Assembly (NCBI GenBank): GCA_023379125.1
Contig: JAMCSY010000010.1
Span: 913-64,912 of the forward strand
From: Patescibacteria group bacterium
GTDB lineage: Bacteria > Patescibacteriota > Microgenomatia > Daviesbacterales > UBA10151
Reading direction: 5' to 3'
DNA: 64,000 nucleotides
Shown: one piece after another, positions 18,673 to 64,000 of the stretch
Position numbering within the stretch: position 1 is the stretch's first letter
How the letters are laid out: the number at the start of each line of letters is the position of its first letter
Notes under the pieces: model-generated
Database searches by the model: none
Told to the model about the DNA's origin: nothing
Seen by the model: the letters and a program-made list of their open reading frames with translations, nothing else
Position numbers and translations under genes: made by a program

Positions 18673-19374
18673 ATGGAAGTTTCTGAGCTTTCTGCCTTTT
18701 TTCCAGCTTATAACGAAGAAAAAAATATTGCCCAAACAGTAGATAGAGCTTTTTCTGTGCTTTCAAAATTGCCTTTAAAAAAGTTTGAAGTAATTGTTAT
18801 TAATGATGGCTCACAGGATAAAACAGACCAAGTTCTAGAGAAACTACAAAAAAAATATACTCAACTAAGAGTGATTACTCACCATCCTAATAAAGGTTAT
18901 GGTGAGGCTATTAAGAGTGGTCTGTATAATGCCAAGTATGATTGGATTGTTTTTACTGATGCTGATGGACAGTTTGATTTCAGTGAAGTAGAAAATTTAT
19001 TAGCCAAAATCAATCAAGCCCCAGTGGTTGTTGGCTTTCGGCTTAATCGGCAAGATTCACTACTTAGAAAATTTAATGGTTGGGGTTGGACACTGCTAGC
19101 TAATATTTTATTAGGTATTAACATCAGAGATGTGGATTGTGCTTTTAAGCTTATTAAAAAAGAAGTGATTGATCATATCCCACATCTGCAATCAACCAGA
19201 GGAGGTATGATCTCTCCGGAATTAATTGCTCGTATCAGGAAAGCGGGATATCCGATTGTTGAGGTAGGAGTCCATCATTTTTCGCGCTCTCATGGAAAAC
19301 AAACAGGCGCCAATATACGGGTAATTATAAAATCCTTTATTGATCTCTTTAAGTTGTGGTGGCAGTTACGTTAA
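18673..19374 (+). CDS. GT2 glycosyltransferase (dolichyl/polyprenyl-phosphate sugar synthase-like)
   Basis: FFPAYNEEKNIAQTVDR...VIVINDGSQDKT...FTDADGQ. Confidence 0.8.
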   Translation: MEVSELSAFFPAYNEEKNIAQTVDRAFSVLSKLPLKKFEVIVINDGSQDKTDQVLEKLQKKYTQLRVITHHPNKGYGEAIKSGLYNAKYDWIVFTDADGQFDFSEVENLLAKINQAPVVVGFRLNRQDSLLRKFNGWGWTLLANILLGINIRDVDCAFKLIKKEVIDHIPHLQSTRGGMISPELIARIRKAGYPIVEVGVHHFSRSHGKQTGANIRVIIKSFIDLFKLWWQLR

Positions 19375-19408
19375 CAGCTTCAAGCTTTCTTGGTGTTATA
19401 CTAAAATC

Positions 19409-20896: not shown

Positions 20897-20931
20897 CTTT
20901 TATCAAGTTAACTTGCGTATAATTTAAAAGC

Positions 20932-21702
20932 ATGAGTAACACAAAATTATCAGTAGTGATCCCAGCCTATAATGAAGAAAAAAATCTTTCTTCAGGATCT
21001 ATCGGCGAAGTAGCTGATTATTTATCAAAACAGGATTTTACATACGAGGTTTTGATCGTTGACGATGGCTCAACTGATCAGACTGCCTCTGTGGTAGAAA
21101 AACAAATCCGCAACAAAAAAGGCTTTAGACTAATTAAAAATAAGCATGGTGGCAAGGCCCTAACTGTTATCTCGGGAATGTTGCAGACAAGGGGAGAAGT
21201 AGCAGTTTTTACAGACATGGATCAGGCTACTCCTTTGAATCAGATAGAGAAATTTCTCCCCAAATTCGAAGAAGGTTTTGATATCGTGATTGGTAGAAGG
21301 GAGGGGAGAAAAGGAGCCCCACTTGCTCGTAAGGTGATTGCTTGGGGGTTTGCTATGAGTAGGACTTTACTGTTAGGCTTACCTTTTGCTGATACTCAGT
21401 GTGGGTTTAAGGCTTTTAACCAAAAAGCCATCCAGGCTGTTTTCCCCACTTTGGAAACAGTTTGGCAAAAAGCAAGAAGTGAGGGAGCTACAGTCAATGC
21501 TGGTTTTGATGTCGAGATGTTGTTTATGGCAAAAAAACTAAGTTTGAAAATCGCTGATGTGCCGGTTGAGTGGCATTACGTAGGCACTGAACGAGTGCAC
21601 CCTTTTCAAGATGCTATGGAAGCAATTCAAGATATGTTCAGAATAAGGCTAAAAAACATCCAGGGAGGTTATGGTCAAATTTCTCAAAACACACTGGATT
21701 AG
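20932..21702 (+). CDS. GT2 glycosyltransferase (polyprenyl-phosphate sugar synthase-like)
   Basis: LSVVIPAYNEEKNL...VLIVDDGSTDQT...FTDMDQATP. Confidence 0.8.
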   Translation: MSNTKLSVVIPAYNEEKNLSSGSIGEVADYLSKQDFTYEVLIVDDGSTDQTASVVEKQIRNKKGFRLIKNKHGGKALTVISGMLQTRGEVAVFTDMDQATPLNQIEKFLPKFEEGFDIVIGRREGRKGAPLARKVIAWGFAMSRTLLLGLPFADTQCGFKAFNQKAIQAVFPTLETVWQKARSEGATVNAGFDVEMLFMAKKLSLKIADVPVEWHYVGTERVHPFQDAMEAIQDMFRIRLKNIQGGYGQISQNTLD

Positions 21703-23197
21703 TTTGAGCATAATTCTGGCAATTTCACTTGTCTATTTCCTGATTAGGCTGCCGAATTTAACAATGCAGCCTATTTTTGCTGACGAGGCAATTTATATTC
21801 GTTGGGCACAGGTAATGAAGGCAGAACCCTCTTTGCGCTTTTTGCCCCTGACTGATGGTAAGACACCACTTTTTATGTGGATTTTGATGGGGGTTTTGAA
21901 ATTTGTTCATGACCCTCTCATGGCGGGCAGGTTATTATCTATTATATCTGGCTACTTTACTCTGCTCGGTGTATTTGCGATTGGTTGGAGATTTTTTAAT
22001 TTTCGAGTTGGTCTTTACTCAGCGCTTTTAGTTACAGTTGTTCCATTCATGGTTTTTCTGGATAGAATGGCTTTAGTTGATTCAATGACAGCAGCATTTT
22101 CAGTCTGGGCTCTATTTAGTGCCCTCTTACTGATTAAGGAAGAAAGAATCGATTTGGCGATGATACTAGGTTATTTTTATGGTGGTGGATTATTAACCAA
22201 AACGCCAGCGCTTTTTAGTATTTTAATGCTGCCAACAACCTTAATTACATTTGACTGGAAATCCAAAATTAGCCAACACAAATTACTAAGACTACTTTGT
22301 TTATGGGTAATTGCGCTGGTGATTGCTTTTGGAATTTATAACTTACTAAGACTAGGTTCAGGCTTTGCGAATTTGAGTTCACGCAATCAGGATTATATTT
22401 TTTCTCCTCTTCAGACTTTAGTCCATCCATTTGATCCATTTATTCCTCATTTGCAAGACACAATTATTTGGTTTATCGATTTGCTATCATGGCCAATTTT
22501 GTTGCTTCTTGTGGGGGGAATTGTAGGGATAATCTATCATAAAAATAAAACTGGTTGGGCAATTTTTCTATGGGGATTATTACCGATGTTAATTTTACTT
22601 GCCTTTCTAAAAACTTTTACCACTCGTTATATTTTATCTTCAATCCCCCCGCTACTAATTATTGCTGCCTTAGCCTTGGATCAATTAGGTAGATGGCTAG
22701 AAACCAGAATTAAGCTTAGTATGCACATGATATTATTGTTACTCCTTCTTTGGCCTATTTATTTGTCATATCTGATTGTGACTCAGCCACTTGTCGCAAT
22801 TTTACCTAGATCAGAAAGAAGTGGTTATTTTGAAGATTGGACAGCTGGCTGGGGGCTAAGGGAGATTGCTCAGTACTTAACTCAACAATCTCAGCAAGGG
22901 TTGGTAGTGGTTGCAACTGAAGGAATTTTTGGGACTTTGCCCGATGGTTTGCAAATTTATTTTGATAAAAATACTCAAGTTGTCTTCAAACCAGGTAATG
23001 CTTCTGCCTCAGCTCAGCTTCGTCAAACAGCCAGCGAGCACTCAACATTCTTGGTAGTTAATAGTAATAGATTTTCTGGAAACCAAGAAGGCTTACAGCT
23101 GATTCAATCTTACCCCAAAGCTAAAGCACCTGATGGTCATCAGGACTCAATGTTGCTCTTTAAAGTTTTACCAGCAGATTTATCTGGGACTAATTAA
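21671..23197 (+). CDS. GT-C membrane glycosyltransferase, ArnT-like (family A)
   Basis: MQPIFADEAIYIRWAQ resembles the ArnT DExRYA loop motif. The protein has about 12 TM helices and is paired with the upstream GT2. Confidence 0.6.
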   Translation: MVKFLKTHWISLSIILAISLVYFLIRLPNLTMQPIFADEAIYIRWAQVMKAEPSLRFLPLTDGKTPLFMWILMGVLKFVHDPLMAGRLLSIISGYFTLLGVFAIGWRFFNFRVGLYSALLVTVVPFMVFLDRMALVDSMTAAFSVWALFSALLLIKEERIDLAMILGYFYGGGLLTKTPALFSILMLPTTLITFDWKSKISQHKLLRLLCLWVIALVIAFGIYNLLRLGSGFANLSSRNQDYIFSPLQTLVHPFDPFIPHLQDTIIWFIDLLSWPILLLLVGGIVGIIYHKNKTGWAIFLWGLLPMLILLAFLKTFTTRYILSSIPPLLIIAALALDQLGRWLETRIKLSMHMILLLLLLWPIYLSYLIVTQPLVAILPRSERSGYFEDWTAGWGLREIAQYLTQQSQQGLVVVATEGIFGTLPDGLQIYFDKNTQVVFKPGNASASAQLRQTASEHSTFLVVNSNRFSGNQEGLQLIQSYPKAKAPDGHQDSMLLFKVLPADLSGTN

Positions 23198-23199
23198 TA

Positions 23200-24915
23200 A
23201 TGATGAGTAAAATATTTAGTATTGTAAATAAAAATAAAATTTTCTTACTACTGATGTTGTTGGTTATCCCAGCCTATGTGGCACTGATTAGGCCAGGATA
23301 TTTTTTTATGCAGGATGACATGCAAGCTTTCCGAATTCAGCAGATGGATAAATGTATTCAGGATGGTCAAATACCTTGTCGTTGGGTCCCTGATGCTGGA
23401 TATCAATATGGTTATCCTGAGTTTAATTATTACCCACCAAGCGTTTATTACTTAGGGGAAGCTCTCCATCTTCTTGGTGTACAGTTTATTGATGCAGTTA
23501 AAATATTATTCATTTTAGGTTATATCCTGTCAGCAGCAACAATGTTTGTCTTGCTTCGTGCATGGTTAGGGGAGTATCCTGCTTTAATTGGGGCAGTACT
23601 TTACACCTATACTCCTTATAAAGCGGTGGAGGTTTATTTGAGGGGAGCATTAAGTGAATTTTGGAGTCTAGTTTTTTTCCCTCTGATCTTTTGGGCAAGC
23701 TTCCAGTTAATCAAACAGGGCAAATCAAGATATTTAATCTGGCTAGCTATCTCCATCGGTTTGCTACTAACCACCCACAATTTGATGTCAATGATCTTTA
23801 TGCCACTTGTGGCAATTTGGATTTTAATCTGGCTAATTCTCAATAAAGCTTGGTTCAGAATTCCCCAGCTTGTGATAGGTGGAGTATTAGGTTTGGGTTT
23901 GGCTTCCTTTTTTACTCTCCCAGTTTTGTTTGAAAGGCAGTATGCTCATTTAGAAACTTTGCTGGGAGGATATTTTGATTATCGTCAGCATTTTGTTGAC
24001 TTAAACCAGCTTTTTATTTCTAACCATTGGGGTTATGGTTCTTCAGAACTTGGTCCTGGGGATGATATGTCTCTTTCTACCGGTAATGTTTTATGGGTAG
24101 GGGCGGTATTGAGTACAGTATTAGCTCTGCTTGCAATTAAAAAGAATAAGGTCGTTTCGCTGGTGAGCTTGGCGTTAGGAGCAACTGTTCTAGTAGTGCT
24201 GTTTATGGTTCATCAAAAATCAAGTTTTATTTGGGCACAAATTCCACAGCTGTGGTACCTACAATTTCCCTGGCGATTCTTGACTGATTCAATATTTTTG
24301 TTAAGTATTCTTTCTGCAGTAGCAATTTACCTGGCAAAAATAAAATTTAATACCAGAGTTTCTGTGAGCTTAGGTATATTGTTGATTTTAGCAACATTCA
24401 TACTTCATCATAGTTTTTTCCAGCCGAAAGAATGGTACAACATCACAGATCAGGATAAATTTTCTGGAGTATTATGGCAAAAGGAATTAACAATTAGCAT
24501 TTTTGATTATTTACCTATTTATGCTAAATTGCCTCCTAATCACGCAGCGCCAGCCGTGCCGGAAATTTTAGATGGGCAAGCTCAATTTGTTAGCTATCAA
24601 AAGGGAAGCGATTTCCAAACTGGACGAATCCAGGTCGAGCAAGCAGCTACAGTTAGATTTCCACTTTTTGATTTTCCTGGAATGAAGGTTTTTTTGGATG
24701 GACAAGAAATCAATCACCATCATTATGACTGTCGCAATGAAGAATATTGTTTAGGCTTAATTACCACTTTAGTTCCAACAGGTACTCATACTTTGATAGT
24801 TCGCTTAACTAATACTCCAATCAGATTATTTGGGAATATCATCAGTATTATCTCAATAATAATTATCTTATATCTCGTTTTTGGGTGGAGGTATGTTCAT
24901 AAAGTTAAAAGCTAA
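23200..24915 (+). CDS. Uncharacterised polytopic membrane protein, 'family B' putative GT-C (1 of 4 tandem paralogs)
   Basis: Motifs FMQDDMQAFRIQQM, DGQIPCRWVPDAGYQYGYPEFNYY, RGALSEFWSL, LTTHNLMS, WGYGSSELGPGDD and QFPWRFL. It has about 13 TM helices and a C-terminal soluble domain with a final TM. Confidence 0.6.
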   Translation: MMSKIFSIVNKNKIFLLLMLLVIPAYVALIRPGYFFMQDDMQAFRIQQMDKCIQDGQIPCRWVPDAGYQYGYPEFNYYPPSVYYLGEALHLLGVQFIDAVKILFILGYILSAATMFVLLRAWLGEYPALIGAVLYTYTPYKAVEVYLRGALSEFWSLVFFPLIFWASFQLIKQGKSRYLIWLAISIGLLLTTHNLMSMIFMPLVAIWILIWLILNKAWFRIPQLVIGGVLGLGLASFFTLPVLFERQYAHLETLLGGYFDYRQHFVDLNQLFISNHWGYGSSELGPGDDMSLSTGNVLWVGAVLSTVLALLAIKKNKVVSLVSLALGATVLVVLFMVHQKSSFIWAQIPQLWYLQFPWRFLTDSIFLLSILSAVAIYLAKIKFNTRVSVSLGILLILATFILHHSFFQPKEWYNITDQDKFSGVLWQKELTISIFDYLPIYAKLPPNHAAPAVPEILDGQAQFVSYQKGSDFQTGRIQVEQAATVRFPLFDFPGMKVFLDGQEINHHHYDCRNEEYCLGLITTLVPTGTHTLIVRLTNTPIRLFGNIISIISIIIILYLVFGWRYVHKVKS

Positions 24916-26620
24916 TTGGCCCTATCTAGTAATTTTTGTACTATCTTTATTGGTGGTATGGCCACTGTTTTATAGTGGCTATTTTTCTCATCATGATGAT
25001 CTTCAAGTAATGCGTATTTTTGAGATGAGACGCTGTCTGGTAGATGGGCAGATTCCTTGTCGTTGGGTACCTGATATGGGTTGGGGTAACGGTTACCCAC
25101 TTTTTAATTATTACAGCGTGTTGCCTTATTATGTTGGAGCTCTTTTTAGTTTTTTGGTGGGTTTTATATGGGCTGCCAAAATATTATTCTTTATCCCGTT
25201 GTTTCTTGGTGGGTTTGCCGTATTTATCTTAGCCAAAGAGTTGGTTAATAAAACGGCGGCTCTGGCGACAGCGAGTTTGTTTATTTTTGCTCCATATCGA
25301 GCACTTGATGCTTATGTCCGCGGTGATGTAACAGAAAGTTTAGCAATCGCTGTAGTCCCCTTGGTTTTTTACTATATCTTGCGCCTAGTTAAACAGCCAG
25401 ACCTGGTAAATTTTCTTAAACTGAGTTTGTTTCTTAGTATCTTCTTGCTTAGTCATAATATTATGATCATGCTGTTTGGTCCGGTTTTATTTGTATGGTC
25501 TGTTTATTGGCTAGTTATTTTGAGGAGTAAGGCGGCAGTAAAATTGTTTTTAAGTGCTATTTTGTCAGTAGGCATAGCTAGCTTTTTTTTATTACCAGCT
25601 TTCCTGGAAAAAAACCTAGTTCAAACTGAAAATCTGATCACTTTTGATCTAAACTTCCGGGCCCATTTTGTGACAGTCTCTCAATTATTTTTTAGCAGAT
25701 TTTGGGGTTATGGAGCTTCTGTTTTAGGTCCTAATGATACTATTTCCTTTCAAATTGGTTGGCCACATTGGTGGTTAGTAGGGCTAAGTATTTTGGTTTG
25801 TTTATTAGGTTTATCACAACTGATTTTTCCGCGATTAATAAATCGGCTAATCAACAATAAATGGTTTCCCTGGCAGAAAATCACTTCTGCACAGTTATCT
25901 TTACTGAGTTTGTTACTGGTTATATTTTTTGGAGCAGCTTTGATGACTCATAATAAATCAGCAATTATTTGGGAACAATTCCCCATCTTGCAGTACACTC
26001 AGTTTCCCTGGCGTTTCTTATCAATTGTGATTTTATCTGCTTCGCTAGTTGGTGGAGTATTTGTTGCAACTTTGAAACCTCGTCGGCAAATTTATGCTAC
26101 ATTACTAATTTTAGTTTTGGCAGTGGGGTTAAATTTGGGATTTTTTCATCCGGACAAATATTATTTTAACTTAACAGATCAGCAGAAATTGAGTGGCCAA
26201 CTTTGGGATGATCAGCGTCAAGCATCAATTCTGGATTATTTACCCAAAACAGCAATTGAGCCCAAGCAGGCAGCACCTAACCAACCAATGATAACTCAGG
26301 GAAGTGCTCAGATCACAAATTTTATTAATTACTCTAATAGATTTAATTTTGGTATCGATGTTAATCAAGAAGCTGAGGTAGAAGTCCCAGTCTTTGATTT
26401 TCCCAATTGGATAGTCCTGGTCAATAGTAAATTATACACACATGATCATAATGATTTTCTAGGAAGGATTGAACTAAACTTACCACCCGGAAAATACTTC
26501 ATTGCAGGAGTGTTTACTAATACAATGATACGTAATGTGGCTAATGTAGTGTCGCTTAGTGCTTTGATACTTTTTTTGATACTTTTAGTTTATGCAAAGT
26601 TTAGAAAAAATATTAAATAA
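24881..26620 (+). CDS. Family B putative GT-C membrane protein (paralog 2)
   Basis: SHHDDLQVMRIFEM, DGQIPCRWVPDMGWGNGYPLFNYY, RGDVTESLAI, LSHNIMIM, WGYGASVLGPNDT, QFPWRFL. The true start may be the internal ATG at 24893. Confidence 0.6.
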   Translation: MGGGMFIKLKANWPYLVIFVLSLLVVWPLFYSGYFSHHDDLQVMRIFEMRRCLVDGQIPCRWVPDMGWGNGYPLFNYYSVLPYYVGALFSFLVGFIWAAKILFFIPLFLGGFAVFILAKELVNKTAALATASLFIFAPYRALDAYVRGDVTESLAIAVVPLVFYYILRLVKQPDLVNFLKLSLFLSIFLLSHNIMIMLFGPVLFVWSVYWLVILRSKAAVKLFLSAILSVGIASFFLLPAFLEKNLVQTENLITFDLNFRAHFVTVSQLFFSRFWGYGASVLGPNDTISFQIGWPHWWLVGLSILVCLLGLSQLIFPRLINRLINNKWFPWQKITSAQLSLLSLLLVIFFGAALMTHNKSAIIWEQFPILQYTQFPWRFLSIVILSASLVGGVFVATLKPRRQIYATLLILVLAVGLNLGFFHPDKYYFNLTDQQKLSGQLWDDQRQASILDYLPKTAIEPKQAAPNQPMITQGSAQITNFINYSNRFNFGIDVNQEAEVEVPVFDFPNWIVLVNSKLYTHDHNDFLGRIELNLPPGKYFIAGVFTNTMIRNVANVVSLSALILFLILLVYAKFRKNIK

Positions 26621-28298
26621 ATTTTGTTTTTTACTGGCGATTATTATTTCTTTGCCAGCAGTATGGACTCTCCTTCATCCAGGTTTTTTTGGTGTCTCTG
26701 ATGATTTACACGTAGCTTGGCTTTATGAAATGGGTCGTAGCCTGGCTGCTGGTCAGATTCCACCCAGATTTGTACCTGATTTGAGTTATGGTTTTGGCTA
26801 TCCTCTTTTTAATTTTGTTTTTCCTCTACCTTTTTATATTGGTGAGATCTTTCGTTTATTGGGTTCAAGTTTAGTGGACAGTGTCAAAGGAGTCTTCTTT
26901 TTAAGCTTACCAATTGGGGCTTTTTTTATGTATAAGTTGCTTAGGGAGTATACGAGTAATCTTCTGGCTTTAGCCGGAGTGGCTCTTTATTGTTATGCTC
27001 CTTATCGGGCTACTGATATATATGTGCGAGGAGCAATTGGGGAAATTTGGGCGTTTGCTTTACTACCACTAATAGCTTGGTCAATTCTCAAAGTGACGGA
27101 TTCTCAACAAAAGAAAATACTTTACTGGGTTGGGGTGGGTTCACTGGCTGTGGGAGGTTTAGTCTTAAGCCATAATATTGCCGCCTATATGTTTGCTCCA
27201 TATATTGTTTTATTGGTCTTGATGAGAGTTATTTCTCAAAAAAACTTCTCTATAAAAAAGATCTGGCCAGTTTTACTGACAGCTGTTGGAGGGTTTTTAG
27301 TCAGTATCTATTTCTGGTTACCAGCATTACTTGATAGCAGACAAGTCAAATATGATACTGTTTTTAACTTCATTGATCACTTTCCTACCTTAAAACAATT
27401 AGTAACACCGTATTTTGGTTATGGTGCTTCGGTGCCAGGACCTTATGATGGTATGTCATTTTTTTTGGGAGAAGGTAGTTTGTTGATGATTGTCATTGCT
27501 CTAATCAGCTTAGTTATTTTTTGGAAGAAATTGACAGTCAATCAACGCGTGCTTTTAATATGGGCCTGGTTAACAATTACCTCTGCTATTTTTATGATGA
27601 ACTATCGCTCTACTATTATATGGAAGACTATTCCTTTGCTGCCATATTTCCAATTCCCCTGGAGATTTTTAATGATGACAACTTTTGCGGTTCCACTATT
27701 GGTTATTGCTTTGCCTAAAACTAAATATACTAATCTTTTGGCAATTTTAATAATCTGTGTTGCTATTGTGCCTGCAATAAATGATTTTAAACCACAACAA
27801 TTCTTAAATAGATTTGATGATTATTATTTAAATAGATATATTCCCGTACCACAGGCATCAGTAGCATATCAGCAAACAGGTGAAGAATATCTGCGCTTAC
27901 CAATAGCCACATCTCAACGTCCTGATCACAACTATCCAATCCCCTCAATCAGTCAAGGCAAGATTAGTGATTTGGTGCAAATAAATAGTTTAAGTACAGA
28001 GTTGAATACCTCGACCGATCAGCCAGCCACCTTAAGCTACTATAAATATTTTTTTCCGGGTTGGATAGCAGAGATAGATGGTCAACAAGTTCCTTTACTA
28101 GCAGGACAACCTTTTGGACAAATCACTTTACAAGTACCATCGGGTCAACATCAAATAAGTATATATTTTACTGAAACACTGCTTAAGAGAATCCTGGATA
28201 TAATATCGATTTTGGCTATCTTAGTTAGCCTATTTGTGGTGATGAGCAATAACCTTTTATTAAAAATAACTCAAAAGTATAATATTAACAAACGATGA
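26592..28298 (+). CDS. Family B putative GT-C membrane protein (paralog 3)
   Basis: VSDDLHVAWLYEM, GQIPPRFVPDLSYGFGYPLFNF, RGAIGEIWAF, LSHNIAAY, FGYGASVPGPYDG, QFPWRFL. Confidence 0.6.
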   Translation: MQSLEKILNKFCFLLAIIISLPAVWTLLHPGFFGVSDDLHVAWLYEMGRSLAAGQIPPRFVPDLSYGFGYPLFNFVFPLPFYIGEIFRLLGSSLVDSVKGVFFLSLPIGAFFMYKLLREYTSNLLALAGVALYCYAPYRATDIYVRGAIGEIWAFALLPLIAWSILKVTDSQQKKILYWVGVGSLAVGGLVLSHNIAAYMFAPYIVLLVLMRVISQKNFSIKKIWPVLLTAVGGFLVSIYFWLPALLDSRQVKYDTVFNFIDHFPTLKQLVTPYFGYGASVPGPYDGMSFFLGEGSLLMIVIALISLVIFWKKLTVNQRVLLIWAWLTITSAIFMMNYRSTIIWKTIPLLPYFQFPWRFLMMTTFAVPLLVIALPKTKYTNLLAILIICVAIVPAINDFKPQQFLNRFDDYYLNRYIPVPQASVAYQQTGEEYLRLPIATSQRPDHNYPIPSISQGKISDLVQINSLSTELNTSTDQPATLSYYKYFFPGWIAEIDGQQVPLLAGQPFGQITLQVPSGQHQISIYFTETLLKRILDIISILAILVSLFVVMSNNLLLKITQKYNINKR

Positions 28299-29563
28299 AA
28301 TTATTTTCTCGGAAAATTTTGCTGGCTACAGTTTTACTAATTATTGTTAAGTTATTACTGGCGGCCATAAGTTTTCATGCAGATGTACAGGCTTTTGATT
28401 TTGGGGGTTGGCTAGTTAGTCATGGAAATATTGCTAATTTGTATGACTACTTGCCAAGTTTGCCTGCTGATAGTCCCATTCTTAAGATGTACCCGGTAGA
28501 CTTCTTGATTTACCCACCTCTAATATACTTTTACCATGGATTATTTGCTTTCATCTTTGATGTTGTATTAAGAGCTCCTTTTAAAGAATCTTTTCTCTTT
28601 GATGTTAATAATGTTTTTGGGGACTGGACTTTTAACTTACACCTACTTCTTTTAAAGGTTCCTTATCTATTTTTTGATTTAGCTACAGCCTATTTTTTGA
28701 GCCGGCTTTTTGATGATCGACGCAAAAAAACTATGGCCGCTGTCTTATGGCTAGTGAATCCAGTGAGTAATTATGCAACCTACTTGATGGGTCAATTTGA
28801 TGTTATACCAACTTTTTTTATGATTCTTTCTCTATGGGTAGTTCAGCGTCAAAAAAGCTGGTTATTTTTAAGAAGTGAAGTGCTCGGCACATTGGCTTTG
28901 GGATTAGGAGCTTCTTTTAAGATCTCGCCATTGTTTTTGCTTATCCCTCTTTCTTCTCTATTTTCCAGGTGGAAAACTCGGATCTTACTAGTTTTATTAG
29001 GCTTGGGAACATATGTTATATTTTTGTTACCATTTCTAGCTTCTTCAGGTTTTAGGCACTCTGCCTTAATAGCTAACCAGACGCTGAAAAGTTTATATCC
29101 AGAAATTATGATTTCTGGCGGAGAGGGGATTATGCTCTTTTTGCTTAGCTTGTTGTTTTTGTATTTTATTTTTTATAGCCGATTGGCTGAACGAACAAGT
29201 CTTTGGCAAAGATATCTGCTAACACTCCTATTATTTTTTACCTTTACTCACTATCACCCTCAGTGGTTTGTATGGATCACCCCCTTTTTTATTATTGAAC
29301 TTGTTTCTAATCAATTTAAGCATCTTTACTTAGTTTTAGTTACATTACTAAGTTTCTTGGGGCTATTATTTTTCTTTGATCCAGGATTATCAATTGGACT
29401 TTTTGCTCCTGTTGCACCTACTTTACACACAACGGCTAGTCTTTGGGATATAATTGGACTGAATATGGATTACACATTTTGGCGCAGCATCCTACAGACC
29501 CTCTTTGCTGCTGTAGCTGCTTTTTATTTCTATCTCTATTTTCCTAGATCATCTAAAATATAG
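28295..29563 (+). CDS. Polytopic membrane protein 'family C' (DUF2029/GT87-like putative GT-C); paralog of 36266-37519
   Basis: LKVPYLFFDLATAYFLSRLFDD..AAVLWLVNPVS...GQFDVIPT matches LKLPYLLLDILIAFLFLKLFNSD..GFVFWLFNPFS...GNLDVIVV in the paralog. The start overlaps the upstream gene by 4 nt. Confidence 0.5.
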   Translation: MKLFSRKILLATVLLIIVKLLLAAISFHADVQAFDFGGWLVSHGNIANLYDYLPSLPADSPILKMYPVDFLIYPPLIYFYHGLFAFIFDVVLRAPFKESFLFDVNNVFGDWTFNLHLLLLKVPYLFFDLATAYFLSRLFDDRRKKTMAAVLWLVNPVSNYATYLMGQFDVIPTFFMILSLWVVQRQKSWLFLRSEVLGTLALGLGASFKISPLFLLIPLSSLFSRWKTRILLVLLGLGTYVIFLLPFLASSGFRHSALIANQTLKSLYPEIMISGGEGIMLFLLSLLFLYFIFYSRLAERTSLWQRYLLTLLLFFTFTHYHPQWFVWITPFFIIELVSNQFKHLYLVLVTLLSFLGLLFFFDPGLSIGLFAPVAPTLHTTASLWDIIGLNMDYTFWRSILQTLFAAVAAFYFYLYFPRSSKI

Positions 29564-29576
29564 ATTTTAAAAACTT

Positions 29577-31274
29577 ATGGTGAAAAGATTAGCCTTTATT
29601 GTTGGATTGGTGTTAACTCTCAGCTTACTTTGGCCACTGTTTAAAGCTCCTTATTTTAGCTCACTGGATGATGTGCAGATCATCAGAATTTATGAGATGG
29701 ATAAATGTATTAAAGATGGACAGATCCCCTGCCGTTGGGTACCTGATCTTGGCAATATGTATGGATATCCCTTATTTAACTATTATGCCCCATTGCCTTA
29801 TTATTTTGGCGAAATTTTCTATTTAATTAGTGGGAGTATAACTTTAGCTGCCAAAATAATGTTTGCAACTCCTTTCTTAGGAGCCTTTATTTTTATGTAC
29901 CTGCTAAGTAAAAGGTTGTGGGGAACTTGGGGTGGTAGTTTATCAGGTATCTTTTATAGTTTTGCTCCTTATCATGCATTGGTCTTTTATGTTAGGGGAG
30001 CAATGGGGGAAATGTGGGCCTTGATGTTTTTTCCCGCAATCCTCTGGGCTGTCTATCGCTTAAAAGAAACATCTAAGTTGCTTTATTCTATTCTCACTGG
30101 ATTATTTTTAGGCTTATTGATTCTTTCCCATAATTTAAGTTTGATGCTTTTTATCCCCATTTTTATGATCCTACTCCTTTACTTTCTTTATCGCAGCACA
30201 AGTTGGCGTATGGTCAAAATGACAGTAATAGCCTTGAGTCTGGGTGTGATGCTGGCCGCATTTTATTGGTTGCCTATGATTGTAGAAAAAGAGCTAGTCT
30301 ATGTTGAAACAACGACTCAAGGTTATTTTGGCTATACGGAACATTTTAAAGGTGTTCATAAACTGTTAGAAAGTAATTGGGGTTATGGGCAATCAGTTCG
30401 TGAAATTCCAGGTGGTCCTCCAGATGGTTTGTCTTATCAAATTGGTCCAGTACATCTTTTGGTTTGGATTTTGGCATTATTTGTGGCGTGGCGTTTGTGG
30501 AAGAAAAAGCGCTCATTGAGTATGGTAATTATCATTTCTAGTTTAATTATTATGTTCTCAATTTTCATGATTAATCCTCGCTCGAATTTTGTCTGGAAGA
30601 TTTTTGATCCCTTAAAGTATCTGCAGTTTCCTTGGCGATTCTTATCGATTGTCATCTTATTTATTTCACTAATTGCTGGTAGCGTAATGTTGGTAGTGAG
30701 AAATAGATTGTCTGTACTTATTTGGATTTCCCTAGTAATCGGAGTGATAGTTCTTAATTTTGCTTACTTTAAACCAGAGTATTTTTACTTTTATACTGAT
30801 CAACAATTTTTACAAGGTACTAATTGGGAAAGACAAGTGACAAGATCTATTTATGATTTTTTACCCAAGGGTGCGGAAAAACCTCCACCTGGACTTGCCC
30901 AAAGTAGATATCAAATTATCGATGGAGAAACGACTGTAAGCAATTTTAATGAAGGGACAAATTGGATTACATTTAATACCCAAACAAAAAACCGTACCAT
31001 CATCCGCTTGTCCCAGTATGATTTTCCCGAGTGGCAAGTGACCGTTGATGGTAAACCGATTAAGATTAATTCTCGGAATACTTATGGTCTAATTACCTTT
31101 ATGATTGGTGAGGGCAATCACCAAGTAACTGTTAGATTAGTAGATACCCCCATTAGAACAATTTCTAATGTTGTATCAATTTTAGGTTTCATCTTCTTTA
31201 TAGTTCTGTTGTTAACACAAGTGAAGCTGACTAGAAAATGGATTCTATATTATTGGCACTTTGTTGGTAGATAA
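29577..31274 (+). CDS. Family B putative GT-C membrane protein (paralog 4)
   Basis: SSLDDVQIIRIYEM, DGQIPCRWVPDLGNMYGYPLFNYY, RGAMGEMWAL, LSHNLSLM, WGYGQSVREIPGGPPDG, QFPWRFL. Confidence 0.6.
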   Translation: MVKRLAFIVGLVLTLSLLWPLFKAPYFSSLDDVQIIRIYEMDKCIKDGQIPCRWVPDLGNMYGYPLFNYYAPLPYYFGEIFYLISGSITLAAKIMFATPFLGAFIFMYLLSKRLWGTWGGSLSGIFYSFAPYHALVFYVRGAMGEMWALMFFPAILWAVYRLKETSKLLYSILTGLFLGLLILSHNLSLMLFIPIFMILLLYFLYRSTSWRMVKMTVIALSLGVMLAAFYWLPMIVEKELVYVETTTQGYFGYTEHFKGVHKLLESNWGYGQSVREIPGGPPDGLSYQIGPVHLLVWILALFVAWRLWKKKRSLSMVIIISSLIIMFSIFMINPRSNFVWKIFDPLKYLQFPWRFLSIVILFISLIAGSVMLVVRNRLSVLIWISLVIGVIVLNFAYFKPEYFYFYTDQQFLQGTNWERQVTRSIYDFLPKGAEKPPPGLAQSRYQIIDGETTVSNFNEGTNWITFNTQTKNRTIIRLSQYDFPEWQVTVDGKPIKINSRNTYGLITFMIGEGNHQVTVRLVDTPIRTISNVVSILGFIFFIVLLLTQVKLTRKWILYYWHFVGR

Positions 31275-31285
31275 TAGATTTATGT

Positions 31286-32788
31286 ATGGATGATTTCGCC
31301 GCAGAAGAACATCTTGATCCAACTACCGAAATTAATTTAGCTACTATCAAAAAGCGTGCTGTCAGTGGCGTAGTTGCTCTCACCGGTCGAATGATTATCC
31401 TGCAGGTTTTATCCCTTGTTGCTACCTTTTTGCTGACAGTTTTTCTGACACCAACACAATTTGGAGTGTTTTATGTTGTCTCAGCTGCGGTTAGTTTTTT
31501 TGCTTATTTTTCTGATATTGGGCTGGGTGCTGCATTAATCCAAAAAAAGGAAGGTTTAACTAGGAAGGAATTAGCAACTACCTTCACTGTTCAAAATGGT
31601 TTAGTGCTGATTATCTTATTAATAATATTTCTTGCAACACCTCTGTATCAAAAATGGTATCACCTAGACCAAGCTGCTATTTATTTATTGTGGGCTCTGG
31701 GGTTTAGCTTGCTACTCTCATCCTTAAAAAGTATTCCCTCACTTTTACTAGAGAGAGAATTAAATTTTAATAAACTAATAGTCCCGCAAATTGCAGAATC
31801 TTTGGTTTATCAATTTGTTGTAGTTTTTTTAGCTTGGAGAGGCTTTGGCATAAATAGCTTTACGATAGCAGTTCTGTTACGAGGTTTTACTGGACTTGGT
31901 TTAATGTATCTGATGAAGCCTTGGCGACCAAGTCTAGCCTTGGCAATCGACTCTTTACGAGGCTTACTCAGATTTGGTTTACCTTACCAAATAAATACTT
32001 TCTTAGCTGTGGCTAAAGATGATGGAATGATACTAGTTTTAGGTGGAATCTTAGGTTCAGCAAATATTGGCCTTTTAGGCTGGGCGCAAAAATGGGCTGC
32101 TGCACCGCTACGTTTTTTCATGGACCAGGTGATCAAGGTTACTTTTCCTGCCTATTCCAGAATGCAAGAACACGAAGAGGAGTTATCCAAAGCAATTAAT
32201 AAGTCTCTCCTTTTTATTTGTATCTTAGTTTTTCCAGCGTTAGTCACACTTTGCATTGCAGCACCATCTTTAGTTTTGCTAATTCCGAAGTATACCAAGT
32301 GGCAACCAGCGTTAGTTGCCTTATCCTTAATTTCGCTAAACTCAGCTTGGGCAGCCGTTACCACACCGCTAACTAATGTTTTAAATGCAATAGGTAAGAT
32401 AAAAACTACATTCAAATTAATGGTGATGTGGACAGTTCTGTCTTGGCTTTTTATTCCCAGTCTATCTTATTTTTATGGAGTTAACGGAGCTGCCTTAGGT
32501 TACACGCTTGTAGGGATGAGTTCAATAGTGGCTATTCTGATCGTGCTACGTTTTGTCAAATTGGATCTATTTGTTAGTGTGGGTAAACCGTTGCTGAGTG
32601 CAGTAATAATGGGAAGCGTGATGGTAACTCTGCAACGATTAATGCCATTGTCATGGGTTAATTTGGTAATGATGTTTGTAGTTGGTATTACGGTTTATGT
32701 ATTGCTTAATTATCTTTTACTTAGGTCTGTTATCCAGCAGGATATTAGTAAAGTCTTGACCAGCTTTAAAGGGGCTAAGGGTGTATGA
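31286..32788 (+). CDS. Lipid-linked oligosaccharide flippase, Wzx-like (MOP superfamily, polysaccharide biosynthesis protein)
   Basis: The 500-aa protein has about 14 TM helices. Its composition and the conserved R/K-rich loop (LLRGFTGLGLMYLMKPWRP) are typical of Wzx/RfbX. Confidence 0.65.
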   Translation: MDDFAAEEHLDPTTEINLATIKKRAVSGVVALTGRMIILQVLSLVATFLLTVFLTPTQFGVFYVVSAAVSFFAYFSDIGLGAALIQKKEGLTRKELATTFTVQNGLVLIILLIIFLATPLYQKWYHLDQAAIYLLWALGFSLLLSSLKSIPSLLLERELNFNKLIVPQIAESLVYQFVVVFLAWRGFGINSFTIAVLLRGFTGLGLMYLMKPWRPSLALAIDSLRGLLRFGLPYQINTFLAVAKDDGMILVLGGILGSANIGLLGWAQKWAAAPLRFFMDQVIKVTFPAYSRMQEHEEELSKAINKSLLFICILVFPALVTLCIAAPSLVLLIPKYTKWQPALVALSLISLNSAWAAVTTPLTNVLNAIGKIKTTFKLMVMWTVLSWLFIPSLSYFYGVNGAALGYTLVGMSSIVAILIVLRFVKLDLFVSVGKPLLSAVIMGSVMVTLQRLMPLSWVNLVMMFVVGITVYVLLNYLLLRSVIQQDISKVLTSFKGAKGV

Positions 32789-35700
32789 GGACTATTAAAT
32801 TCATTTTCGTTGTTATTTTAAGCTGTTTCTTCTTTAGAGCACTTACGGTACATGCTGTAAGTAGTTCCTTTGTCACGATAGTAAATCCAATTCGCGGTGA
32901 GGATACTTGGGACTTACCAAATCAGCAACCAGTTGATGCAGTAATGGGACAAATGCAAATTATCAATCGTTATCAATTGTCTGCTACGTGGCTAATACGA
33001 TTTGATGCTTTATCGGATCATAATATAATCAATGTTCTTAAAAGTAGCCCGATTTCTCAAGAGAAAGGTTTATTTTTAGAAGTAACTCCAAGTTGGACAA
33101 CAACAGCTGATGTAAATTATCGTCAGTCTGCAGTTTGGCACAATGCCGGAAGCGTATTTTTAACAGGCTATAATCAAGCTGAGCGATTAAAGCTTATCGA
33201 CACTGCGTTTATCAAATTTAAAGAAGTCTTTGGTTATTATCCAAAATCAGTGGGAGCTTGGTGGGTGGATAGCTACTCACTCCAATATATGTCTACTAAG
33301 TATGGAGTGACTAGCTGCTTAATTGTGGCAGATCAATTCTCAACTGATAACTATCAAATCTGGGGCCAATATTGGGAGGCACCATATTATCCAGCCCAAC
33401 AAAATGCTTTAATTCCAGCTCAAACTGCTGAGCAGAAAATTCCTGTGGTCATGATGCAGTGGGCTAGTCGTGACCCGGTAAACGGTTATGGTGAAGGGGT
33501 TCAAGAAAGTACATATTCTGTTCAAGCTAATGATTATCTTGATTATCACAATTTGGGCAGTGATTATTTTGCCAAGTTACTGGATATCTATACGAAGCAA
33601 CCACTTAACTCTGTTAATCAACTAGTGGTAGGTTTAGAGAATTCCTATTCTTGGACTAAGTACCAAAGTGAATATGATCAACAGCTTGCACTAGTGGCAG
33701 CTAGACAACAGCAAGGGCAATTTCAAGTTAAAAGCATGGAGGATTTTGCCAATTATTATAGCCAAACTTTTCCTAGTGTTTCATCAGAACATATTATTGT
33801 TGCAGACGATCCGTTAGGTACAAATCAAAAAGCTGTGTGGTTTATGGATCCCTACTATCGAATAGGTTGGTTCTATAACAATCAAGGGAGTGTTATTCTC
33901 GATATTCACCAATATATATCTGGCTCACAAGAATTGTGTTTTGATCAAGCCTGCCAAAATTTAAATTTTGCTACTTCTGCAACAAGGGTACTTGACGATG
34001 TGACAAATCATCAACAAGATTTACTAGACCCAGGTCAGATTAGCAATTTTCAGGTTGAACACTCAACTGATAAGTATATTATTAAGTATACCAATGAGGC
34101 AGGAAGAACTAGAGAAGTTCAGTTATTACCGCGGGATATTGGGATTGACAATCAGATAACTGCTATTGATAGTTTTATTCTGCAAGTAACTACAAAGCAA
34201 AATCAAACAAATAGTTTGTCTCTAAACTCGACTGATTATAAACAATATCAGGAATCCTTGGCAAGCTTGTTACGAGGGGTACTGAAATTTATTCTCTTCT
34301 TGTTAATAGGGGTTTTCATCCCAGGTTATTTAATAACTAGGAAAATCAAAGAGAGTTTGTTGTGGCAATTTTTTGTTTCTGTCGTGGTAGGAATTTCTGC
34401 TTTAACCCTGTTGGCTTTTATCGCTGGTTACTTAAAAATGGAAATCATCATCTATCTCTATCTAGGTTTGGCTGTGGTTGCCTTTGCTTACTATAAATGT
34501 TATCAGCAACTACACCTAAAACATCTCCTTAGGAAATTGGATAGTTATACGTTGGTTGTGTTGCTGATAATAATTGCAGGAACAATTTTTCAGTGTTTAG
34601 CAATTGTTAAATCAGGTTGGGTTTATCCATTTGGAATGGGTTTTTTAGGTCCACTTGGCCACGATGGGATTTGGCATCAAGCGTTAATCAACCAACTAGA
34701 GCAACAAGTGCCTCCACTTAATCCATCATTTTCTGCAACTTTGTTATCAAACTACCACTACTTTTATGATTTGTTGTTAGCTCAAACTGATAAACTTACT
34801 ACTATTGGAGTACTAGATTTACTCTACAGATTTTACCCAATCTTACTCTCTTTGCTATTAGGATTAGGTACGTACTTATTGGCTGACAGGTTATTTAATA
34901 ATAAATGGGTGAACTTAACCAGCTTGTATTTTGTTTACTTTGGCAGTAGTTTTGGTTGGATTGTGCAATATTTGCATAGCAGTGAATTATTGGGTGGAGA
35001 GTCTGCTTTTTGGATGAATCAGCCAGTATCAATGAATCTTAACCCGCCATTTGCAATCTCATTAATCATGCTGATAAGTCTGGTCTTACTGATTATTAAA
35101 TCACAACGGGATGGTAAAACTTTGGCAGTGATGATTGCTTTTGTCCTCATTGGAGGTGTGCTGATCGAATTTAAAGTGTATGCTGGCTTGCTTGCCTTGG
35201 TAGGATTGGGGGGATTGGCTTTTGTCCAAGTGTTAAAGAAAGATTTTTATTATTTGAAAATGTTATTTGCAACCACAATTATTTCTTTGACAGTTTTTTT
35301 ACCACAGAACAGTCAATCTGCAGAATTGTTGGTTTTTTCACCATTTTGGTTCATTCATTCGATGGTAGATTTTACTGATCGAGTAGGTTGGTTAAAGCTA
35401 TCACAAGCGCGTCTGGCATATTATCAAAGAGGGGAAACTCTCAAGTACATACTGGTTGAGGTATTAGGGCTAACTATTTTTTTAGTTGGTAATTTGGGTA
35501 CGAGAATAATTGGATTGTTTTCTTCACCTAAGCTGCTGAAGGTTAAATTTTTTCAAAAGGGAGAAGTCCTTTTTATCACCCTGATTGGTCTAGCCTCATT
35601 GGCAATTCCAATTTTTTATATTCAACAGGGTAATCCCTGGAATACTATTCAATTTAGCTACTATGCTTTATATTTACTTTCAGTAGGAGCAGGCGCTAGT

Positions 35701-36255
35701 TTATATTTATTATCAAAAAAGTTACCCACAATATTGGGTTTAGGATTTATTTTGTTAGTACTTGTAATAACACCCATTAGTTCTTATGCTACTTTTAAAA
35801 GTGGTTTTTATAATTTGCCACCAGCTCGATTAATGACTGGAGAGTTGGCAGCCTTGGATTTTTTACATAATTTACCTTCTGGGATTGTATTAACTTATCC
35901 ATATGATAAAAACCTGAAGAATAGTTTTACTAATCCTTATCCTCTCTATATGTATGAAACAACATCATATGTTTCAGCTTTTTCTGGCAAAACAACTTTT
36001 TTAGAAGACGAGATCCAGCAAGAGATACTAGAAGGTAATCAGTCAAGCGGAGATAATTATCAAAAGAGACTGGTTGAGGAAAACGATTTCTTTAATAGCA
36101 AAGATATTAGCTGGTCGATTGCGTTTCTAAATAACAATCACATTGAATATATTTATTTGCCTATACAATATCACCTTGCCTTGAACATAGACTCCTTAGG
36201 ATTGAAGAATATTTTTGAAAATGATGAGGCTGTAATTTACCAGAAAATGCAGTAA
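32785..36255 (+). CDS. Fusion protein: N-terminal ~480-aa secreted domain (uncharacterised, possibly carbohydrate-active) plus C-terminal 'family D' polytopic membrane module (HDGIWH motif)
   Basis: A signal peptide MRTIKFIFVVILSCFFFRALTVHA leads into a W/Y-rich soluble domain. The membrane region then carries GHDGIWHQALINQ...NYHYFYD...YRFYP...SLLLG...GSSFGWIV...GGESAFW...NPP, shared with the 38169-40139 protein. Confidence 0.6.
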   Translation: MRTIKFIFVVILSCFFFRALTVHAVSSSFVTIVNPIRGEDTWDLPNQQPVDAVMGQMQIINRYQLSATWLIRFDALSDHNIINVLKSSPISQEKGLFLEVTPSWTTTADVNYRQSAVWHNAGSVFLTGYNQAERLKLIDTAFIKFKEVFGYYPKSVGAWWVDSYSLQYMSTKYGVTSCLIVADQFSTDNYQIWGQYWEAPYYPAQQNALIPAQTAEQKIPVVMMQWASRDPVNGYGEGVQESTYSVQANDYLDYHNLGSDYFAKLLDIYTKQPLNSVNQLVVGLENSYSWTKYQSEYDQQLALVAARQQQGQFQVKSMEDFANYYSQTFPSVSSEHIIVADDPLGTNQKAVWFMDPYYRIGWFYNNQGSVILDIHQYISGSQELCFDQACQNLNFATSATRVLDDVTNHQQDLLDPGQISNFQVEHSTDKYIIKYTNEAGRTREVQLLPRDIGIDNQITAIDSFILQVTTKQNQTNSLSLNSTDYKQYQESLASLLRGVLKFILFLLIGVFIPGYLITRKIKESLLWQFFVSVVVGISALTLLAFIAGYLKMEIIIYLYLGLAVVAFAYYKCYQQLHLKHLLRKLDSYTLVVLLIIIAGTIFQCLAIVKSGWVYPFGMGFLGPLGHDGIWHQALINQLEQQVPPLNPSFSATLLSNYHYFYDLLLAQTDKLTTIGVLDLLYRFYPILLSLLLGLGTYLLADRLFNNKWVNLTSLYFVYFGSSFGWIVQYLHSSELLGGESAFWMNQPVSMNLNPPFAISLIMLISLVLLIIKSQRDGKTLAVMIAFVLIGGVLIEFKVYAGLLALVGLGGLAFVQVLKKDFYYLKMLFATTIISLTVFLPQNSQSAELLVFSPFWFIHSMVDFTDRVGWLKLSQARLAYYQRGETLKYILVEVLGLTIFLVGNLGTRIIGLFSSPKLLKVKFFQKGEVLFITLIGLASLAIPIFYIQQGNPWNTIQFSYYALYLLSVGAGASLYLLSKKLPTILGLGFILLVLVITPISSYATFKSGFYNLPPARLMTGELAALDFLHNLPSGIVLTYPYDKNLKNSFTNPYPLYMYETTSYVSAFSGKTTFLEDEIQQEILEGNQSSGDNYQKRLVEENDFFNSKDISWSIAFLNNNHIEYIYLPIQYHLALNIDSLGLKNIFENDEAVIYQKMQ

Positions 36256-36265
36256 AGTAAAAAAT

Positions 36266-62040: not shown

Positions 62041-64000
<1,960 letters not shown>

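Follow-up and report, generated by a model that had tools for sequence, protein, structure and literature searches.

The four consecutive membrane protein genes that we call the family B array (B1-B4), found in a window of 64,000 nucleotides from a Patescibacteria group bacterium, belong to a catalogued but uncharacterised branch of GT-C proteins, Pfam family PF10131, and do not represent a new class of enzyme. A large locus for cell-surface glycan assembly has these genes as its conserved core, and sequence comparison indicates that they are old, distinct and non-redundant copies, each with its own orthologs. The reading we favour is that B1-B4 are probably four non-redundant GT-Cs of the PF10131/YfhO-like branch that transfer lipid-linked sugars to distinct positions on a surface glycan or glycoconjugate. 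Our analysis shows the fold, the family placement, which residues are conserved, the topology, the orthology and synteny, and the gene fusions. We infer catalysis, the lipid-linked donor and the acceptor, as no PF10131 member is characterised in the searchable literature, and we infer the stepwise division of labour from conserved orthology and order. The same literature holds no functional study of PF10131, of the proteins carrying its legacy name, or of GT-C islands in CPR.

Family placement and fold

The earlier description of four genes of 565-579 aa and a fifth partial copy (Table 1) held up in the open reading frames, the translations and a family HMM, against which the fifth copy scored 34.3 bits (E 4.5e-13). 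Read from the sequence, the start of B2 is ambiguous, with ATG 24893 as an alternative that would give 575 aa, and B3 is the most divergent of the four copies. Family-averaged hydropathy and K/R bias gave a topology of 11 + 1 TM helices, with a soluble beta-rich domain (about residues 398-524) facing outward between the polytopic core and the final TM. The first-pass annotation had described this order of core, soluble domain and last TM correctly, but had placed about 13 TM helices ahead of the soluble domain where we count 11. As it also reported, the family C open reading frame overlaps B3 by 4 nt and a Wzx flippase gene follows the array, starting 11 nt past the end of B4. Scanning positions 18000-37999 for promoters and terminators was uninformative: promoter-like sites were at or below shuffle expectation (57 vs 66.6), and those terminator-like sites that were compared with open reading frame coordinates fall within T-rich coding sequence.

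Table 1. Positions of the family B array, its marked motifs and its neighbours in the 64,000-nucleotide window.
Feature	Coordinates	Strand	Description	Evidence
GT2	20932..21702	+	candidate polyprenyl-phosphate sugar synthase	PF00535 81.8 bits
PMT_2-type GT-C (family A)	21671..23197	+	directly upstream of array	PF13231 50.9 bits
B1 (family B copy 1)	23200..24915	+	571 aa, PF10131-type GT-C membrane protein	ORF; PF10131 36.9 bits
B2 (family B copy 2)	24881..26620	+	579 aa from TTG 24881	ORF; PF10131 46.4 bits
B3 (family B copy 3)	26592..28298	+	568 aa	ORF; PF10131 27.9 bits
Family C membrane protein	28295..29563	+	422 aa, inserted between B3 and B4	ORF
B4 (family B copy 4)	29577..31274	+	565 aa	ORF; PF10131 31.1 bits; structure modelled
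D31-D32 codons of B4	29667..29672	+	candidate catalytic acidic pair, extracytoplasmic loop 1	
R53-W-V-P-D57 codons of B4 (RWVPD motif)	29733..29747	+		residue conservation
Wzx/MOP-family flippase	31286..32788	+		PF13440 E 5e-51
Family D protein	32785..36255	+	1156 aa, soluble N-terminal half + unannotated polytopic domain	
Fifth family B copy	63774..64000	+	first 75 aa, truncated by window end	translation

All four proteins exceed the PF10131 (PTPS_related) gathering cutoff, a whole-protein score of 26.4 bits, with marginal scores of 27.9-46.4 bits. The alignments are partial, running from model positions 1-169 (B1) to 1-329 (B4) of 621; the match leaves out the N-terminal 66-74 residues, where the DD and RWVPD motifs lie, and the model does not cover the C-terminal half with its soluble domain. 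Seventy of 85 diverse relatives also matched the model (E <= 1e-3). PF10131 is listed in GT-C clan CL0111 and is a family without known function (PMC7801869). The family is very large, with about 18,800 clusters when its proteins are grouped at 50% identity, and proteins identical to B3 and B4 are already named '6-pyruvoyl-tetrahydropterin synthase-related protein' at NCBI, a legacy name that misleads, given that no PTPS catalytic domain was found. With four passing scores and names already in place, the suggestion of an undescribed glycosyltransferase family had to be abandoned; what PF10131 lacks is a function and a solved structure, not cataloguing.

An AlphaFold2 model of B4 made from a 130-sequence alignment (pLDDT 94.1) matched GT-C enzymes exclusively, while a single-sequence model (pLDDT 48) was discarded. 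Family B also shows homology to the PMT_2 proteins of the window (hhalign 96.9%, E 1.4e-10, in a local alignment that begins after loop 1), and both results support the proposal that these are GT-C-type proteins. Of the two outcomes that the first-pass annotation had named as refuting it, a confident match to a characterised family with a non-glycosyltransferase function and a lack of conservation of the DD and RWVPD residues in orthologs, neither occurred. Profile searches of PDB sequences with alignments A1, A3 and A4 returned no GT-C chain, and the matches obtained were at chance level (E > 0.2).

Conserved residues and known GT-C systems

The motifs reported for the array are real, but the strict conservation claimed for them already breaks down within the array. 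All four copies have DD and QFPWRFL unchanged, whereas B3 carries AGQIPPRFVPD and FGYGAS, B2 RGDVTESLA, B1 TTHN and B4 WGYGQS. We scored conservation over 138 diverse relatives using B4 numbering. D31 is kept in 94% of them (130/138), and the first D is present in all five window copies; R53 reaches 99%, and these two residues are the only parts of DD and RWVPD conserved family-wide, with D32 at 61%, W54 at 84% and D57 at 83%. Beyond these motifs, R140, E145, H185 and R354 stand at 99%, G141 and P352/W353 at 100% and H256 at 94%, and each of them, like D31 and R53, is kept in B1-B4. In the fifth copy a D and an R align to B4 D31 and R53, with FDG where the other copies carry DD. Hydropathy and K/R charge bias assign the conserved residues and loop 1 to the outer face, and D31 provides the conserved acidic residue expected of a GT-C enzyme in the first extracytoplasmic loop, whether as DxD, DE or a modified form. 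By topology and position, the DD of family B is a candidate counterpart of the PMT/ArnT 'DE'. The active site is predicted to lie on the extracytoplasmic face, made up of D31 and R53 from loop 1, R140/E145, H185, E237, H256 and the QFPWR loop. Equating WGYG(A/S)S with the WWDYG motif of OST was rejected, as the former sits in the TM7-TM8 loop (residues 268-273), another structural element.

A GT-C fold can also serve without catalysis, PIG-U in the GPI transamidase being one example of a non-catalytic subunit with this fold. The B proteins could in the same way be GT-C-like in fold and not glycosyltransferases, acting as non-catalytic substrate-binding or scaffold subunits or as polymerase- or ligase-like enzymes of the Wzx pathway, and we consider this improbable.

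Protein glycosylation would be a different role for the same fold. B1-B4 could be PMT-like O-glycosyltransferases or STT3-like oligosaccharyltransferases acting on surface or secreted proteins (pilins or S-layer proteins, for example) and not on a growing glycan polymer, with the four copies serving different protein or sequon classes, though we regard this as unlikely. PMT_2 scores were 20.3 for B1 and 24.4 for B4 vs a cutoff of 26.1, and no match to PF02366 or the MIR domain was found in B1-B4 using Pfam. Family B is 9-12% identical to solved structures of PMT/GT39 and PMT_2-type enzymes (Pmt1/2/4, ArnT/GT83, GtrC-like), and unlike them it has a loop 1 about 13 residues longer, with its own R-W-V-P-D and GYPxFN motifs. 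With respect to STT3/PglB/AglB (GT66), B1-B4 have no PF02516 match and the C-terminal domain (398-524) no WWDYG. GT87 (PF09594) gave no match for B1-B4 at E <= 1. The mycobacterial arabinofuranosyltransferases AftA, AftB, AftD and EmbA/B/C and the ER-lumenal ALG mannosyl- and glucosyltransferases have no detectable sequence similarity to B1-B4, and PF11847 was touched by only 2 of the 85 diverse relatives.

A known parallel to the reading we favour, that of four lipid-linked sugar transferases, is YfhO (PF09586), a GT-C enzyme of Bacillus, Staphylococcus and Listeria that, together with the GT2 CsbB and the flippase GtcA, decorates teichoic acids with GlcNAc taken from C55-P-GlcNAc. Like YfhO, family B has an extracellular domain after its polytopic GT-C core; GT2 genes lie alongside its own, and the C-terminal beta domain of B4 aligns weakly to YfhO positions 757-821. 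Unlike YfhO, the B proteins fall about 300 aa short of the model's 835 positions, and the flippase adjoining the array is Wzx-type and not GtrA-type. The Pfam match to YfhO is confined to B4 and falls below the cutoff (19.4 vs 28.5 bits, residues 453-519 only), and 12 of 85 diverse relatives matched at E <= 1e-3 (best E 1e-12). Teichoic acid synthesis is not known in Patescibacteria. There is precedent for joint action of a GT-A/GT2, a flippase and a GT-C that carries a DxD-like motif in one of its extracellular loops, and by analogy this three-component mechanism offers the best working model for family B (PMC8035078).

Age of the paralogs

The paralogs had been taken as recent enough to share DNA identity. 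An array produced by recent tandem amplification, with copies that are functionally redundant or dosage- or phase-variable, would agree with the tandem arrangement of the genes, with a family B copy number of 1 to 4 across genomes, and with an exact 14-mer that does occur in B1 and B2, exactly twice, at 23374-23387 and 25055-25068 (0.01 expected by chance). However, this 14-mer simply encodes P-C-R-W-V of the conserved motif, and a 15-mer common to B2 and B4, CGTTGGGTACCTGAT, maps to the RWVPD codons of B4. Pairwise protein identity among B1-B4 is just 30-36%, DNA similarity is confined to short motif-encoding patches (67-80%), and the orthologs, which are separate for each copy and 45-62% identical to it, keep their order in many genomes from several Microgenomates lineages. 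Protein identity, DNA comparison and orthology together refute a recent amplification, which we find hardly credible, and with it the idea that the paralogs are recent.

Orthology also follows position. In arrays of related loci the B1 orthogroup (54-62% identity) takes first place, the B2 orthogroup (45-59%) second and the B3 orthologs, of which there are at least 120 at 50-55% identity, third. The order B1-B2-B3-B4 is present in 9 loci and the order B1-B2-B3 in 17, at orthology margins of +150 to +375 bits, and the B1-B2-B3(-B4) order recurs across Microgenomates, in most cases flanked by a PMT_2-type GT-C gene on one side and Wzx on the other. Among paralogs, identity is 29.6% in the C-terminal soluble domain vs 33.5% in the TM core, and within orthogroups it is 50-51% vs 53-56%, weakly suggesting that this domain might be a fast-evolving specificity module. 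At about 55% protein identity, saturation of synonymous sites is to be expected.

The surrounding locus and proposed function

In 46 of the 75 loci that could be evaluated, the gene directly upstream of the array codes for a PMT_2 GT-C, and the family A protein in this position in the window has an invariant D38-E39 after TM1. Wzx is the next gene downstream in 42 of the 65 related loci that allowed this to be judged; the window's Wzx gene also resembles the MOP flippase model NF007773 (E 4e-40, below its cutoff). Homologs of family D come after Wzx in most related loci, making it a conserved partner. The protein, whose membrane domain is encoded at 34282-36252, had no match in Pfam, NCBIfam or PDB sequences; hhalign related it to family B with 90% probability (E 1.5e-6). 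The position of family C is occupied in two related loci (L001 and L081) and empty in six (L002, L005, L011, L012, L063 and L077). The family C protein had no Pfam or NCBIfam match, and its paralog at 36266-37519 reached a sub-threshold GT87 score (21.8 bits vs a cutoff of 25).

It is possible, if somewhat doubtful, that these genes make up a stepwise extracytoplasmic line in which a Wzx-flipped lipid-linked oligosaccharide is extended by B1-B4 in turn, with one defined residue from each, PMT_2-type, family C and PIG-V-like GT-Cs add steps, and family D acts as the final transferase, polymerase or ligase. Assembly lines of this kind are known from the ER lumen and from the wall of mycobacteria, where other GT-C families make them up. 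If such a line exists, family D would be a previously unrecognised GT-C family and the PF10131 branch would be the core of the main Microgenomates surface-glycan pathway.

With B1-B4 taken as four non-redundant transferases, as we prefer, a cytoplasmic GT2 would put a sugar on polyprenyl phosphate, the lipid-linked sugar would be flipped across the membrane, and each B enzyme would move the sugar to its own site on a surface glycan or glycoconjugate, the acceptor probably being assembled on the Wzx-flipped lipid-linked oligosaccharide. Each copy most likely carries out a different transfer step, outside the membrane, from polyprenyl-phosphate carriers.

Genomes of Patescibacteria (CPR) are tiny, and an attached life on other cells is assumed for many of these bacteria. 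The window nevertheless holds at least 17 GT-C-like membrane protein genes in about 45 kb, which together with a B1-B4/Wzx core kept across Microgenomates points to an elaborate, unstudied surface glycan, likely central to the Microgenomates envelope and to cell-cell interactions. A first biochemical study of PF10131 would find concrete targets in the conserved residues, in the topology and in the GT2 fusions described below.

Among NCBIfam models, the GT2 encoded upstream of the array is most similar to PgfS, ArnC and dolichyl-phosphate hexose transferase, with scores under the cutoff in each case, and given that its gene adjoins the PMT_2 gene it may serve the PMT_2 enzyme rather than family B. 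Fusions of GT2 to family B are of two independent kinds. One is PgfS/ArnC/Dol-P-hexose-transferase-like, and GT2s of the type found at 20932 are fused to family B in L033, L040, L072 and P0264. In 7 of the 11 fusions examined the GT2 is of the other type, that of the gene at 46842, and shows no obvious sign of being a polyprenyl-phosphate sugar synthase. The array itself has GT2 genes on its flanks, and a GT2-GtrA fusion is encoded at 14542-15735.

Layout, predicted fold and conserved residues of family B

ORF calling in the window found four family B membrane-protein genes (B1 to B4), all in one direction, within a tightly packed co-directional block from 18673 to 38168 whose genes overlap or are separated by gaps of 35 nt or less. 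The first-pass annotation had described this array with a fifth partial copy, an overlapping family C gene and a Wzx gene next to it, and all were present where it had placed them. B2 has two candidate starts, the TTG at 24881 giving a 35-nt overlap with B1 and the in-frame ATG a 23-nt overlap.

Coordinates of the family B array and of other membrane-protein genes in the window
Feature	Position	Strand	Details
PMT_2-type genes, seven	starts 19340, 21671, 41345, 47891, 50354, 52000, 53489		
B1	23200-24915	+	ORF, 571 aa
B2	24881-26620	+	ORF, 579 aa from TTG, or 575 aa from ATG at 24893
B3	26592-28298	+	ORF, 568 aa
Family C membrane protein	28295-29563	+	ORF, 422 aa; 4-nt overlap with B3; 29% identical to the other family C protein
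B4	29577-31274	+	ORF, 565 aa
Wzx/MOP flippase	31286-32788	+	PF13440 E 5e-51; starts 11 nt past B4
Family D protein after Wzx	32785-36255	+	1156 aa
Family C, second protein	36266-37519		417 aa
Family D paralog	38169-40139	-	656 aa
PIG-V-like gene	57221-58438		PF04188 29.1 bits vs cutoff 22.4
Fifth family B copy, truncated	63774-64000	+	75 codons; family HMM 34 bits, E 4.5e-13

We modelled B4 with AlphaFold2 using a 130-sequence alignment (pLDDT 94.1, pTM 0.93; pLDDT 48 for a single-sequence run). All significant Foldseek matches of the model in the PDB were GT-C (STT3, AglB, AftA, AftD, ArnT, PglB, Emb, Pmt4 and ALG12; TM-scores 0.35-0.50, identity 8-14%), indicating that the predicted fold of family B is GT-C. 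Structure comparison values for the model (Pmt4 21.8, STT3B 21.2, Pmt2 18.1, PglB 17.9, AglB 17.3, ArnT 16.8, AftD 16.6, AftA 16.0, ALG9 15.8 and ALG12 15.5) place it roughly equally far from several characterised GT-C families and near none. Profile-profile comparison (hhalign) found family B homologous to the window's PMT_2-type proteins over TM2-TM7 (96.9%, E 1.4e-10), with R140 of B4 pairing with an invariant Arg of those proteins; together with the fold matches, this bears out the GT-C-type nature proposed earlier.

Family-averaged hydropathy, loop charge bias and the helices of the model predict 11 TM helices, an outward soluble domain at about 397-531 (beta strands at 445-521 in the model) and a final TM helix at about 532-546, with short K/R-rich loops (161-171, 206-213, 307-315 and 372-379) and the C-terminal tail on the cytoplasmic side. 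The order is as originally described, but the count of about 13 helices before the soluble domain was slightly too high. Likewise, the motifs called strictly conserved are present, with DD and QFPWRFL invariant across B1-B4, but some deviate even within the four copies (AGQIPPRFVPD and FGYGAS in B3, RGDVTESLA in B2, TTHN in B1, WGYGQS in B4).

Conservation was examined in 138 diverse relatives with a median identity of about 30-34% to each window copy. By B4 numbering, D31 (94%), R53 (99%), P65 (99%), R140 (99%), G141 (100%), E145 (99%), H185 (99%), E237 (94%), H256 (94%), S273 (94%), Q350 (98%), P352 and W353 (100%) and R354 (99%) are near-invariant, while the second Asp D32 (61%), W54 (84%) and D57 (83%) are weaker and are subfamily features, so that DD and RWVPD hold across relatives only in part. 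Every near-invariant residue, D31 to R354, falls on the extracytoplasmic side of the predicted topology and is kept in all of B1-B4, so that none of the four looks degenerate. The near-invariance of these catalytic-type residues counts against family B being non-catalytic, or a polymerase or ligase, and we disfavour those roles. D31 lies eight residues past TM1 and is likened by position to the usual site of the GT-C loop-1 catalytic acid, the hhalign alignment with the PMT_2-type proteins having ended short of loop 1 with D31 outside it. Loop 1 is the best-conserved region (45%), and the C-terminal domain diverges only slightly more than the membrane core among paralogs (29.6% vs 33.5% identity) and within orthogroups (50-51% vs 53-56%), with no sign in either comparison of a hypervariable C-terminal module.

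Family placement and age of the copies

The array was initially put forward as an undescribed glycosyltransferase family, which overstates the case since Pfam already lists the family, within the GT-C clan, and NCBI has a name for it. All four copies exceed the PF10131 (PTPS_related) gathering cutoff of 26.4 bits (B1 36.9, B2 46.4, B3 27.9, B4 31.1); PMT_2 matches are sub-threshold, and for YfhO (PF09586) the window copies give one weak match, between B4 residues 453-519 and the C-terminal end of that model. Among 85 diverse relatives, 70 match PF10131, 22 PMT_2 and 12 YfhO. PF10131 belongs to GT-C clan CL0111 and is annotated 'function unknown' (PMC7801869). The NCBI entries identical to B4 and B3 carry the legacy title '6-pyruvoyl-tetrahydropterin synthase-related protein [Patescibacteria group bacterium]'; in the family B proteins no PTPS domain was found. 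The PF10131 alignment is partial (model positions 1-169 to 1-329 of 621), and the first 66-74 residues, bearing DD and RWVPD, fall outside the model. Against a library of 50%-identity clusters, a four-copy profile matched 18,806 representatives at E <= 1e-3, 5,987 of them at E <= 1e-30, indicating a very large family. Profile searches of PDB sequences detected no solved structure, and our literature search found no paper on the family's function, its structure or the meaning of the B1-B4 module in Microgenomates.

The copies had been thought recent enough to share DNA identity. The 14-mer CCTTGTCGTTGGGT on which this was based does occur exactly twice, in two copies, precisely where reported (0.01 expected), but it encodes the peptide P-C-R-W-V, and DNA similarity among B1-B4 is confined to short patches of 67-80%, each encoding conserved motifs. 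The only longer exact matches, of 35 and 29 nt, are physical gene overlaps, and pairwise protein identity is 30-36%. Searches with B4 and with B3 each brought back a separate set of orthologs (50-59% identity), most of them from Candidatus Daviesbacteria and often on shared contigs. Across 82 loci, of which a scan of species-representative genomes supplied 79, each family B ORF was assigned to a copy, with orthology margins of +150 to +375 bits; loci hold one (33), two (18), three (21) or four (10) copies, in the order B1-B2-B3-B4 in nine and B1-B2-B3 in 17. By this classification B1-B4 are distinct orthologous groups, and their recurrent order indicates an array older than the split of several Microgenomates lineages, which refutes recent tandem amplification.

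Genomic context and proposed function

Related genomes share a recurrent order of GT2, PMT_2-type GT-C, GT2 (20932 type), PMT_2-type GT-C (21671 type), one to four family B genes, Wzx and a counterpart of the 1156-aa protein. Immediately upstream of the array stands the 21671-type GT-C in 46/75 evaluable loci, and immediately downstream Wzx in 42/65. The GT2 at 20932-21702 is most similar to polyprenyl-phosphate sugar synthases (top similarities PgfS, ArnC and dolichyl-phosphate hexose transferase, all below trusted cutoffs). Naturally occurring proteins of 800-833 aa that join a GT2 to a complete family B domain come in two independent forms, with the 20932-type GT2 (related loci L033, L040, L072; relative P0264) or the 46842-type (L026, L051, L060; P0244, P0247, P0265, P0322). 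A 731-aa GT2-PMT_2 fusion occurs in L002.

In multi-component transmembrane glycosylation systems, a GT-A/GT2 on the cytoplasmic side forms the C55-P-sugar, which a flippase then turns to the outer face; a GT-C passes the sugar to an acceptor outside the cell, with the help of a DxD-like motif in one of its external loops (PMC8035078). For family B, the analysis shows the fold, family, conservation, topology, synteny and fusions; that its members are catalytic, which donor and acceptor they use and how they share the work are inferred. The best-supported reading is that B1-B4 are GT-C glycosyltransferases of this type: a cytoplasmic GT-A/GT2 would make C55-P-sugar, a flippase would carry it to the outer side, and B1-B4 would move the sugar onto an extracellular acceptor using a DxD-like motif. 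The conservation of four orthogroups in a fixed order argues for a different reaction by each, and the adjoining Wzx suggests a lipid-linked oligosaccharide as the scaffold.

Whether a family C gene separates B3 from B4 depends on the lineage: L001 and L081 have it, and L002, L005, L011, L012, L063 and L077 do not. Microgenomates-type gene order was also seen on many contigs titled 'uncultured Gammaproteobacteria/Pseudomonadales bacterium' ('binchicken', SRP co-assembly MAGs; e.g. L004, L006, L010-L015), one 'Clostridia' (L025) and one 'Bdellovibrionales' (L080). Identities in these oddly titled loci are 52-57% (L004, L006, L010-L013, L077), down to about 33-40% elsewhere, and the titles look like placeholder or wrong labels.

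The wider GT-C island

The density of GT-C-like genes at 18673-58438 is exceptional, with at least 17 interleaved with about 11 GT2 and two GT1/GT4 genes; besides the PMT_2-type genes, the tally holds five family B, two family C, two family D and one PIG-V-like. A polytopic domain of about 650 aa is common to both family D proteins and contains numerous invariant polar residues (D128, W131, H132, N157-Y-H159, D163, E240 and K298, in window:34282-36252 numbering); neither protein has a Pfam, NCBIfam or PDB sequence match. In most of the 82 loci a family D homolog comes after Wzx. An hhalign match to family B (90% probability, E 1.5e-6), with the Asp of GHDG pairing with D31, suggests family D may be a GT-C family without a current model, and this unannotated Wzx-adjacent family is more novel than B1-B4.

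Neither family C protein is assigned in Pfam or NCBIfam; the 36266-37519 protein alone gives a sub-threshold GT87 match (21.8 bits vs 25), and family C's position relative to the array differs between genomes. Island ORFs 37506-38168 (220 aa) and 40169-41344 (391 aa) have no Pfam match, nor the latter an NCBIfam match. Upstream of the island, 14542-15735 encodes a protein joining a GT2 and a GtrA/DPMS transmembrane domain (PF00535 + PF04138), possibly a combined polyprenyl-phosphate sugar synthase and flippase module. The gene at 62837-63787 shares 14 nt with the beginning of the fifth family B copy and has similarity to GDP-L-fucose synthase (NF047922, 282 bits, under the 500-bit cutoff), a hint that a 6-deoxyhexose may be among the sugars used.
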